DNA of 64,000 nt, taken from the sequence record MN445185.1. One strand, 5' to 3'. The stretch is from Escherichia phage vB_EcoM_EC001. The notes under the pieces were generated by a model that did not search any database, was not told the origin of the DNA, and worked only from the letters and a program-made list of their open reading frames with translations. The position numbers and the translations under genes are program-made. Shown here in pieces: positions 948 to 20,692 of the stretch (position 1 is its first letter; each line of letters opens with the position of its first letter).

Positions 948-1313
948 ATGCGTTTTAAACATCAAACCGTTGTGTTGGCAAAGAAAGCGTTTTTGGTTCG
1001 TCTTTCTTACATTATTACTCGTGTCACTGCGAAGGACGTTACGCAGAAAGACATTGCGTTATTAGTAGGCTGCTCACCGTCACAAATATCTGCGATTAAA
1101 AATGAACGTGAGAAGGCCGTGACTATCGAAACATTGATGCGGGTTGCTGATACACTGCGCCTGAATTACGAAATCGTCTACCGTTCCATCAACGGCAAAT
1201 GCCGCCATAGCTTTAAAATTGAATCATGCATCGATTACATGAACAACTGTCCTATCCGGGTACGAGAAACAGGACTTAAAGTCATGGCACGTAAACCTTC
1301 TGCAGTAATGTAG
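948..1313 (+). CDS. Putative HTH (XRE/Cro-like) transcriptional regulator
   Basis: Helix-turn-helix-like segment QKDIALLVGCSPSQISAIKNE; AAGGAG SD. Confidence 0.6.
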   Translation: MRFKHQTVVLAKKAFLVRLSYIITRVTAKDVTQKDIALLVGCSPSQISAIKNEREKAVTIETLMRVADTLRLNYEIVYRSINGKCRHSFKIESCIDYMNNCPIRVRETGLKVMARKPSAVM

Positions 1314-1324
1314 GGAGCAAACGT

Positions 1325-1711
1325 ATGAATTGGTTTGTAAATGGTATCACCCGTCGCGTGATGACGGAAGAGGATGATCGATGTAAACATCTTAAAGTGG
1401 GCTCTATAGCCCCGCGCTATACGGCAGAGTGCGACCCATGGGGCCGCGAAACGTATTACATGTGCGAAGACTGCTGGGAAAAACTGCAGGCTGCAATTGC
1501 GGCGGAAGAAGTGGTCTGCGACGACTGCAAAGGTACCTTCCCGAAACGGGATACCGTTGAGTGGAAATGGTACGACTTTGACCCCAGTCAAGGGGATAAA
1601 GAACTCTGTATCTGTAATAACTGTGTGTCGTTACCGGTACATTTAAACCGTGTAGAGAATGACCGTCGGGCATTTGAACACGACTTTCCAGAAGCAACTT
1701 TCTGGGATTAA
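1325..1711 (+). CDS. Cys-rich zinc-ribbon-like hypothetical protein
   Basis: Paired CxxC motifs (CEDC, CDDC, CICNNC); GGGAG SD. Confidence 0.6.
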   Translation: MNWFVNGITRRVMTEEDDRCKHLKVGSIAPRYTAECDPWGRETYYMCEDCWEKLQAAIAAEEVVCDDCKGTFPKRDTVEWKWYDFDPSQGDKELCICNNCVSLPVHLNRVENDRRAFEHDFPEATFWD

Positions 1712-2243
1712 CTAGTGTAAACCTTAAGGAGTATATCATGGCGAAGGCCCCTAAAACTGTAGCAAAAGATTCAACGGCAAGCACCGCGACTAAATCTGCA
1801 AAAACGTCTACTACAGAATTTCCACGTTCACCTACCATTCCTAAACCGGATGTAATTGTACCAATCAGTGAACGTCTGAAAACGATTCACATCGAACGTG
1901 AATTTCCGATTGACCTTGGTCAGGAAATCGTTGCGGTTAATCTTGGTAGTGATGTCCGCTTTACTATCTACAAGGGATTAACTAGTGTAAACCTTAAGGA
2001 GTATATCATGGCGAAGGCCCCTAAAACTGTAGCAAAAGATTCAACGGCAAGCACCGCGACTAAATCTGCAAAAACGTCTACTACAGAATTTCCACGTTCA
2101 CCTACCATTCCTAAACCGGATGTAATTGTACCAATCAGTGAACGTCTGAAAACGATTCACATCGAACGTGAATTTCCGATTGACCTTGGTCAGGAAATCG
2201 TTGCGGTTAATCTTGGTAGTGATGTCCGCTTTACTATCTACAA
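1704..2243. repeat. Perfect tandem direct repeat, 2 x 270 bp
   Basis: 1704-1973 is identical base for base to 1974-2243, including the RBS, ATG and first 79 codons of the gene. Confidence 0.95.
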
Positions 2244-2664
2244 AGGCGCGCATCTGAACAACATGGTGCTAACCCGCGGTGATGAAGTTATCGGTCTGTC
2301 TCGTTACGACACGCAAATCGAAAACATCTATCCGGTGTTTGCAGTAGCGATGTTGCGTTTGTTCATGCAGGATAAAGCCGACCTTTGTGGTCAGCTTGCG
2401 GGTATGGCGGATCGTGTTGGTCATATTCTGCCGACGCTGGTGAAACTGTACCCAGTTACGATTGACGTGGCGTTTACTACTGTAGACAACAACCACGGTT
2501 ATATCGTGCTGACCAAAGACGGTAAAGTTATCGCTGGCAATCTGACTGATAACGAAGTGCAGAAACATATGGACAAATTTGCGTTCATGGTGAATCGCTT
2601 AGCGCACGTCAGTGTCAAACATTCCGAAACTTGGACGGCGCTTGCCTCCAAACCGGAACTGTAA
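1738..2664 (+). CDS. Hypothetical protein with duplicated N-terminal module (alternative start 2008)
   Basis: ORF reads through both repeat copies in frame; identical RBS and ATG at 1738 and 2008. Confidence 0.6.
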   Translation: MAKAPKTVAKDSTASTATKSAKTSTTEFPRSPTIPKPDVIVPISERLKTIHIEREFPIDLGQEIVAVNLGSDVRFTIYKGLTSVNLKEYIMAKAPKTVAKDSTASTATKSAKTSTTEFPRSPTIPKPDVIVPISERLKTIHIEREFPIDLGQEIVAVNLGSDVRFTIYKGAHLNNMVLTRGDEVIGLSRYDTQIENIYPVFAVAMLRLFMQDKADLCGQLAGMADRVGHILPTLVKLYPVTIDVAFTTVDNNHGYIVLTKDGKVIAGNLTDNEVQKHMDKFAFMVNRLAHVSVKHSETWTALASKPEL

Positions 2665-2667
2665 TCA

Positions 2668-2705
2668 TTAAGGGGTCTTCGGACCCCTTAATTTTTTGTC
2701 TTTTT
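2668..2705 (+). terminator. Rho-independent terminator
   Basis: Stem ttaaggggtc / gaccccttaa with ttcg loop, then a T-run. Confidence 0.75.
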
Positions 2706-2753
2706 ACGCATTATCCTCATGTTGTGACAGCAATACCTTTTGAGGGCATTACA

Positions 2754-3752
2754 ATGAAAACTGTGGCTAAATTGTTTCGCACCAGCATCCGCACTGCCGA
2801 GTTCCGAAATAACGTCGGTACCGATACTGTACGAGCACGCCGCCTAAAAGAGTTTCTAAAGGACGAGACTTATTCTGTTTACGTGGTGAAGAATAAAGAA
2901 ACCTGGGAGGGTTATTTAGTGGCCACCTATCGACACGGTGACCCTACACTAACCTGTCACTATTTTGAGGAGTTTGTACCTGGGGCGTTCGATAAAGTTG
3001 GTTTGGCCCTTGTGCTCGACCATACCGGATTCGAATATATGTCGTGCCCAGCACCTACTGACGATGTTGAACAAAAACTGGTCGAAAAAGGGTTTGTTCT
3101 TTCAGATATCGTTTGGGCATGTCATTCCAAACTGTTTGACAAAGTAATAACCGCACCGGAAATCAAGATTATTTCTGGTGATGCATACGCAGAACTTACC
3201 AAGGATGATAAAGACGTTATCCTGAATTTGATTAGCGGTGCAATTTGCGAAGAGCTAGAATACGATATGCGTGGCTACTATACGCACATTGGTCCGTTAG
3301 CAGAAACAGTAATAGCAAGAATTCAGCACGCTAATGTGGAGACTGCAATTTGGCGAGACGGTCATGATATCGTCGGTATTGCCCAGATGCGCTTGGTTAC
3401 ACCAGGCGTCGTTGAACTTTCTGGTTTAACCGTTGCACCCACGCACCGTAAACGTGGCATTGGTCGCCGGCTAATGGGCGCGCTATTCGATTTCGCACAA
3501 CGTCATTCCGACCAAGTCTATATTGAAACAGCTGCTGATAATAATCCAGCAAATCACCTGTATGGCAACATCTTACGTTGCAAGCAGGTACTGCGTACAC
3601 TAACGTTGAAACGCGATCCTGAACTTATTAGCTGGAAACGGGTGAATGGAAACCGCGCCGATCGTGTGCTGAAAGAAGAACCTAGCTTTCCGGTGGAGAC
3701 TACAACCAGGCTGACTATTAGTGATATGTTTCAATCTGGCATGAGAGGATGA
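2754..3752 (+). CDS. GNAT-family N-acetyltransferase domain protein
   Basis: C-terminal acetyl-CoA motif HRKRGIGRRLMG; GAGGG SD before ATG 2754; the track 5' extension from 2631 runs through the terminator. Confidence 0.7.
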   Translation: MKTVAKLFRTSIRTAEFRNNVGTDTVRARRLKEFLKDETYSVYVVKNKETWEGYLVATYRHGDPTLTCHYFEEFVPGAFDKVGLALVLDHTGFEYMSCPAPTDDVEQKLVEKGFVLSDIVWACHSKLFDKVITAPEIKIISGDAYAELTKDDKDVILNLISGAICEELEYDMRGYYTHIGPLAETVIARIQHANVETAIWRDGHDIVGIAQMRLVTPGVVELSGLTVAPTHRKRGIGRRLMGALFDFAQRHSDQVYIETAADNNPANHLYGNILRCKQVLRTLTLKRDPELISWKRVNGNRADRVLKEEPSFPVETTTRLTISDMFQSGMRG

Positions 3753-3758
3753 TAACGG

Positions 3759-4577
3759 GTGATAAGACCAATTTTAAAATGGATGGGTGGTAAGAGTCGT
3801 GTACTGCCCGAGCTGCTACAGGTGTTTCCGGATGCTGAGTATTTCGTTGAACCTTTTGTGGGCGCAGGGTCAGTGTTTTTAAACACTAAATACCCGAACT
3901 ATATTCTCGGCGACACGAACCCGGACTTAATCGAGTTACTGACCATGGCGCGCGATCGTCCGGAAGCGCTGATTCTGGAAGCAAAGGCGCTCTTTGCAAA
4001 TGGGACGGACCGCGGTCTGTACATGAAACGGCGTGAGGAATTTAACAGCGAGACAACCACGGGGAAACCTAATCTCCAGCGCGCCGCGATGTTCCTGTAT
4101 CTTACACGTCATGGTTACAATGGTTTGTGCAGATACAATCAGTCGGGTGGGTTTAACGTGCCCTATGGTCAACACCCGAACGGTGTCTATTTCCCTGAAG
4201 AGGAAATTCTGGCGTGGGCAAAACGTTGTTCGGAAACCAACGTCGAGCTGCTCTGCGCGGACTTCCGCGATATCCTAAATAAATGCCCATCTAACGCTGT
4301 GATATACGCTGACCCGCCCTATATCCCTCTTTCGGATACGGCTAAACACGCGCAGTATCACAGCAAAGAATTTTCACAAGCTGACCACCGCGAGTTAGCG
4401 AAACTTTTAAAACAACAAGCTGCCGATGGCAATAAGGTCGTTCTGTCAAACGCAGATACGTTACTCACACGCGATATTTATTACGGCTTTACTTGGCGCG
4501 AAGTTCAGGTAGGTCGATATATGTCTGCGGATGCGAATAAGCGTAAAGCGGTGACGGAGCTAATCGGCACCTTATAA
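3759..4577 (+). CDS. dam: DNA N6-adenine methyltransferase (Dam-like, D12 class)
   Basis: KWMGGK N-terminus, motif I FVGAGSVF and motif IV DPPY; GTG start. Confidence 0.85.
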   Translation: MIRPILKWMGGKSRVLPELLQVFPDAEYFVEPFVGAGSVFLNTKYPNYILGDTNPDLIELLTMARDRPEALILEAKALFANGTDRGLYMKRREEFNSETTTGKPNLQRAAMFLYLTRHGYNGLCRYNQSGGFNVPYGQHPNGVYFPEEEILAWAKRCSETNVELLCADFRDILNKCPSNAVIYADPPYIPLSDTAKHAQYHSKEFSQADHRELAKLLKQQAADGNKVVLSNADTLLTRDIYYGFTWREVQVGRYMSADANKRKAVTELIGTL

Positions 4578-20661: not shown

Positions 20662-20692
20662 TTTCAGATATATATTACTTAGGTGAGAGTTA
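20662..20692 (+). promoter_or_regulatory. Conserved 31-bp promoter-like motif, class 1
   Basis: Identical to 872-902. Confidence 0.4.

Follow-up and report, generated by a model that had tools for sequence, protein, structure and literature searches.

We examined a window of 64,000 nucleotides (the whole stretch of DNA analysed) from the record MN445185.1 of Escherichia phage vB_EcoM_EC001 (EC001). The window belongs to Seoulvirus, SPN3US-like jumbo phages of ~240 kb, with Salmonella phage JN03 as the closest natural match (~97%). It probably represents positions 96,001-160,000 of the EC001 genome, and its GC content of 48.5% equals the published EC001 figure. The locus considered here contains the following features (coordinates are those of the window; designations follow the interpretation reached below).

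1325-1711, plus strand: upstream gene, encoding a Cys-rich protein of 128 aa with a weak double zinc-ribbon match; its last 8 nt lie within the repeat unit.
1704-1973, plus strand: repeat unit, copy 1, identical to the sole copy on the read-derived contig SRR17297938_310.
1738-2664, plus strand: spurious 308-aa ORF, product of the extra copy, present as a CDS in phage Lh1B (UGO35831.1).
1954-1993, no strand assigned: artificial junction, ...GTCCGCTTTACTATCTACAA/GGGATTAACTAGTGTAAACC..., without microhomology; this 40-mer is missing from contigs SRR17297938_310 and SRR17297938_272.
1974-2243, plus strand: repeat unit, copy 2, the same as copy 1; with 270 nt taken out, the window contains the whole of SRR17297938_310 as an exact match.
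2008-2664, plus strand: real gene, encoding a 218-aa protein, homologue of SPN3US YP_009153397 (phrog_32024), with the RBS AAGGAG at 1995-2000.
2667-2692, plus strand: intrinsic-terminator-like hairpin with an 11-bp stem and a T-run, directly past the gene and outside the repeat.

The transcription unit ends at this hairpin. Upstream neighbours of the gene encode the Cys-rich small protein and an HTH regulator, and those downstream a GNAT acetyltransferase and a Dam methylase. A Pfam search with the 218-aa protein gave no match, and PHROGs gave only one family, of unknown function; the protein is restricted to Seoulvirus. The N-terminal 47 residues are variable and of low complexity. A scan for sigma-70 promoters yielded nothing exceeding shuffled expectation, the matches in the repeat unit sitting on the opposite strand. 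Elsewhere in the window, an exact 31-nt repeat, TTTCAGATATATATTACTTAGGTGAGAGTTA, is found at 872-902 and 20662-20692, ~46 nt upstream of the start codons at 948 and 20739, and may serve both genes as a promoter or regulatory element. It is also the break point of Logan contigs in related phages. Its core, TATATTAC, is not enriched within the window (4 found versus 1.85 expected). TRF (Tandem Repeats Finder) additionally reports a weak tandem repeat at 46764-46821, with a 24-nt period, 2.4 copies and 76% matches.

Positions 1704-1973 and 1974-2243 are identical at 270 of 270 nt (TRF: period 270, 2.0 copies, 100% matches, score 1080). This tandem is the sole long exact repeat of the window, where the only other repeated 31-mer is that at 872 and 20662, and the chance expectation for a repeat of this kind is ~1e-153 per 64 kb. 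The unit opens with the final 8 nt of the gene upstream, whose stop codon is TAA at 1709-1711, and continues through a 26-nt intergenic region with the RBS into codons 1-78 of the downstream gene and 2 nt more. The RBS AAGGAG is present twice, at 1725-1730 and 1995-2000, and so is the ATG, at 1738 and 2008. An earlier reading of the DNA without database searches (the sequence-only reading) had described a perfect duplication including RBS and start codon, with identity breaking on both sides and no flanking microhomology, and direct comparison of the copies bears out this description. The match extends 0 nt further to the left and 0 nt to the right; since identity halts exactly at both boundaries, there is no microhomology at the junction, which reads ...ATCTACAA/GGGATTAAC..., its core also being written ...TTTACTATCTACAA/GGGATTAACTAGTG.... 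The same reading was correct in stating that the unit measures exactly 90 codons and is in frame: it shares the frame of the downstream gene, and the 308-aa ORF (1738-2664) reads through both copies, includes the 218-aa ORF (2008-2664) and crosses a translated intergenic copy (...TIYK-GLTSVNLKEYI-MAKAP...). In the protein the repeat ends at K79/G80, within an almost invariant block; a low-confidence AlphaFold model (mean pLDDT 46) places this point between the second and third strands of a predicted four-stranded sheet. Both copies carry a T at codon 28 (positions 1820 and 2090); this change is non-synonymous and the resulting Phe28 is private to the window, C/Ser28 being present in 12 of 12 aligned natural relatives.

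One explanation of this arrangement is a genuine, very recent tandem duplication, produced by illegitimate recombination without microhomology and fixed in the sequenced stock. Either of the identical RBS/ATG pairs could then start translation, yielding a 308-aa protein with a repeated N-terminus in addition to the normal 218-aa one. The in-frame repeat, the lack of a stop in the translated intergenic copy and the intact second RBS/ATG accord with such an event, as does the presence of the lineage-private T117/F28 allele in both copies, and tandem duplications are known in jumbo phages (discussed in PMC8273493). However, the boundary cuts the conserved block and, in the low-confidence model, the predicted beta-sheet; considered together with the reads and relatives described below, a fixed genuine duplication is very improbable. 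An engineered insertion, in which a cloned fragment was placed upstream of the gene, had also been proposed, and SpeI (ACTAGT) and AflII (CTTAAG) sites do occur close to the 5' end of the unit. Nevertheless, both sites are native to the intergenic sequence of all single-copy wild relatives and lie off the repeat boundaries. Vector or scar sequence is lacking, the phage is described as a wild sludge isolate and its reads show one copy. We regard engineering as a practically negligible option.

The sequencing history of EC001 is informative in this respect. According to its announcement, the phage is a wild isolate from sludge with a circularly permuted genome of 240,200 bp, 270 CDS and a GC content of 48.5%, its nearest relative being JN03. 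MiSeq 2x300 reads, deposited as SRP351973, were assembled de novo with SeqMan NGen; progressiveMauve was used to realign the draft to JN03, and a 'circular contig of 240,200 bp' resulted. The deposited assembly was built on a subsample of 200,000 reads, SRP351973 holding ~1.8 million. An artefact of this kind presupposes that a de novo contig was closed to a circle or re-oriented, as the announcement documents, and should leave identical copies no longer than about one read, as seen in the 0/270 differences and the 2x300-nt reads.

The reads support one copy, as seen in the Logan contigs of SRA run SRR17297938, which are a k=31 assembly of the reads after graph clean-up and not the raw reads themselves. 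Two contigs of this run cover the locus. The first, SRR17297938_272, was found through the GNAT protein of the window, of which it is the sole exact carrier in the contig collection, and is an exact substring of the window (2550-4563). The second, SRR17297938_310 (1,375 nt), was found by a look-up of the upstream gene with a short flank and matches the window exactly at 874-1973 and then at 2244-2518. It is thus laid out as 830 nt of left flank, ONE unit and 275 nt of right flank: after ...ATCTACAA it runs into AGGCGCGC..., not into GGGATTAAC..., and as a whole it is not a substring of the window as deposited. Its 170-residue cut product comprises residues 1-170 of the 218-aa protein without interruption and is unique to that contig in the collection, where exact look-ups of the 218-aa, 308-aa, Dam, 267-aa and predicted 190-aa cut proteins gave no match. 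Between the two contigs there is a 31-nt gap at 2519-2549, though this stretch holds no repeated 31-mer; the break could be due to polymorphism or to error k-mers at very high depth.

Taken together, the two contigs equal the window at 3,389 of 3,389 nt, including the private T at 1820 (S28F), whereas the nearest natural relatives, in full-length alignments, show 5 or more mismatches to one of these contigs and 38 or more to the other. The contigs appear to represent the reads of the window's own phage, or of an isolate indistinguishable from it. From the 100% identity over 3.4 kb, private alleles included, we infer that SRR17297938 is the EC001 library (SRP351973); a literature search gave no link between the two accessions. 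A genuine fixed duplication would require that SRR17297938 did not come from the sequenced stock. In a simulated k=31 graph, the duplicated sequence breaks at 1733, 1973, 2003 and 2243, and the collapsed sequence has no breaks. The real contig SRR17297938_310 crosses both unit boundaries unbroken, and therefore the junction is not in the read graph. A genuine duplication should have left its junction in the reads at approximately genome depth, and the contigs spanning the locus do not contain it. In these assembled reads of the same sample the junction is missing and one copy is joined to both flanks, as expected of an artefact. Reads supporting only one copy had been named in advance as the finding that would refute the duplication, and it is this finding that the assembly provides.

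The same assembly bears on a further possibility, namely that a real duplication was present in a minority of the lysate genomes and was built into the consensus from the 200,000-read subsample. Minia-type simplification retains a junction of full depth and would remove one only if its coverage fell below about a quarter of that on either side. A junction carried by a minority of genomes could be removed by the clean-up, so that the Logan graph could hide a low-coverage junction, and the deposited assembly did draw on a subsample of the reads. Yet a consensus assembler is not expected to favour a minority path, the perfect identity and a length just under one read are explained more simply by an overlap of contig ends, and no relative shows a trace of the repeat. 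A minority duplication as the source of the deposited sequence is most unlikely. The corresponding biological claim, that two in-frame starts in a minority of the EC001 lysate give normal and repeated-N-terminal forms of a conserved Seoulvirus orphan protein, is highly doubtful.

Comparison with related phages for a single-copy version had been suggested in the sequence-only reading, and it agrees with the reads. Among the 33 GenBank phages that match window positions 1300-2700, 32 span 1131 nt instead of 1401 nt and have one copy. Twenty contigs encode the exact upstream protein, and at least 23 the exact thymidylate kinase; on the contigs listed, with the exception of Lh1B, the next gene is single-copy, with 218 aa where it is complete and fewer where the contig ends. 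More than 15 single-copy contigs are thereby added to the GenBank phages. In five of these contigs, 869 of 870 nt equal the collapsed window (300-nt flank, unit and 300-nt flank), and the sole difference is the private T (S28F) that is present in both copies of the window. With the 308-aa ORF as query, a collection of 5.8 billion proteins yielded 25 clusters, all from Seoulvirus and 206-252 aa long; none of these homologue clusters has the duplicated form and no protein exceeds 252 aa. A degenerate pattern of the junction had 0 matches in the viral contig collection and 0 in the metagenome contig collection. A genuine duplication might be expected to recur in an independently assembled genome, and the sole other carrier is Lh1B, discussed below; no independent genome, contig or protein has it.

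These searches also revealed many near-complete Seoulvirus contigs of ~240 kb within NCBI isolate assemblies of Salmonella and E. coli (e.g., GCA_007315435.1, GCA_006433395.1 and GCA_009474245.1) and likewise within SRA runs (Logan SRR9287741, SRR7867305 and SRR36014349). This suggests that the jumbo phage is frequently co-sequenced with bacterial cultures, either in a carrier state or as contamination. Eleven SPFM records (LR535901, LR535903-LR535908, LR535911-LR535913 and LR535917, corresponding to SPFM1, 5-10, 12, 14, 15 and 20), many of them exactly 240,197 bp long, match the locus only in fragments, as 14-18 short pieces. The 218-aa protein has garbled homologues there, at 36-57% identity and 219-252 aa in length. 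These records look like low-quality or reference-shaped sequences.

Lh1B (OK428535.1) has the same junction and the 308-aa CDS (UGO35831.1). The window is colinear, without gaps, with OK428535.1 from 96001 onwards (96001-160000), the CDS coordinates are identical, and the record has 240,200 bp and 270 CDS, the same figures as EC001. In the Lh1B paper, vB_EcoM_EC001 (MN445185) is given as the closest relative, and the genome is reported as a SPAdes de novo assembly, Genome Detective being used as well. Over the 64,000 positions of the window, Lh1B shows 0 indels and 2,124 mismatches (3.3% divergence); natural relatives at similar divergence have 1-3 gap openings per 6.2 kb. Isolated Ns in Lh1B, clustered in hypervariable patches, account for 259 of the 2,124 mismatches. 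The substitutions fall at third codon positions in 73% of cases, and they therefore represent real variation of another phage, written onto the coordinates of the window.

The repeat itself is mosaic in Lh1B. Its two copies differ from each other at 22 positions, and the unit of the window equals Lh1B copy 2 at positions 1-112 and Lh1B copy 1 at positions 139-270. Across the junction, 296 nt are identical in Lh1B and the window, Lh1B alleles being confined to the outer halves of the copies, where they correspond to alleles that occur naturally in single-copy phages. Both Lh1B copies hold the private T of the window at codon 28, which fits a scaffold-derived sequence. Both switch points lie in one interval of the unit, 113-138, a placement that would be expected from overlaying a single-copy sample on a scaffold with 270 extra bases. 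Lh1B is thus best regarded as a substitution-only projection onto the scaffold of the window, from which it probably inherited the repeat. The alternative that Lh1B is an independent carrier, in which an ancient duplication was followed by recombination of the flanks, was rejected, as the two sequences are ungapped over 64 kb and share length and CDS coordinates. Read-mapping models for the crossover in Lh1B (coverage threshold, mixture and contig gap-fill) were also considered and none was verified; simple mapping of 286-nt single-copy reads would be expected to put Lh1B alleles deeper into both copies than in the pattern seen, a'-[b a]-b'.

Collectively, these results make it very probable that the 270-bp tandem arose as an artefact when the deposited genome was finished and has no counterpart in the phage DNA. 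Of the three origins that had been offered, an assembly artefact stands, and a very recent duplication and an engineered insertion do not, given the single copy in the read assembly and the native SpeI/AflII sites. The question whether the gene encodes a duplicated N-terminal module or initiates at the internal start at 2008 becomes moot, the real gene being the 218-aa ORF of every relative. An artefact is also indicated by the form of the repeat, because it has 0/270 differences, is shorter than a 300-nt read, lacks microhomology, and its boundaries are blind to gene and fold limits. From the published workflow we infer the specific route, an untrimmed overlap of contig ends. De novo assembly of the circularly permuted genome from 2x300-nt reads would have given a linear contig that slightly overran 100% of the genome, its ends being common over ~270 nt, just under one read length. 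This contig would then have been closed to a circle and re-opened at the start of JN03, with the overlapping ends concatenated rather than merged. Such a join would leave a perfect direct repeat inside the sequence, wherever the contig ends happened to fall; its in-frame placement, leading to the 308-aa ORF, would be a matter of chance (1 in 3). One of the two copies is spurious, and the choice between copy 1 and copy 2 is arbitrary.

The value of this result lies in curation, not in biology. In MN445185 and OK428535.1 alike, 270 bases and the 308-aa CDS are spurious. The corrected unique genome length is 239,930 bp, not 240,200 bp, and the gene proper is the 218-aa ORF that begins at 2008. 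The indels, the gene content and the 'shared' duplication of OK428535.1 are untrustworthy for comparative or taxonomic work. More generally, public re-assemblies of SRA runs can decide such cases without the raw reads.

Genuine tandem duplications include those of T4 rII and the gene 'accordions' of poxviruses. Those described in jumbo phages 121Q and G (PMC8273493) resemble the EC001 repeat in that they are head-to-tail, have zero divergence when young and can duplicate start signals. By contrast, genuine duplications of phages and large viruses have read, PCR or genetic evidence behind them and usually span kilobases or entire genes, whereas the junction described here is missing from the read-level assembly. 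Lh1B resembles reference-projected consensus genomes in its identical length and CDS coordinates and absence of indels; its Ns fall in divergent patches, and it retains the scaffold sequence where it crosses the junction. It differs in that its paper reports a SPAdes de novo assembly, our assignment resting on sequence comparison. A close counterpart of the EC001 repeat is provided by over-extended or untrimmed contig ends of circular or permuted genomes. The Phage Annotation Guide (PMC8785237) warns that linear contigs may overrun the genome and have identical ends. Such ends likewise form a perfect direct repeat of at most about one read at an arbitrary position, are missing from the read graph and from relatives, and have a history of circular closure and re-orientation. 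The EC001 repeat differs from them in being internal rather than at the two ends of the record; in the route reconstructed here, this is because the sequence was rotated to the start of JN03 after closure.
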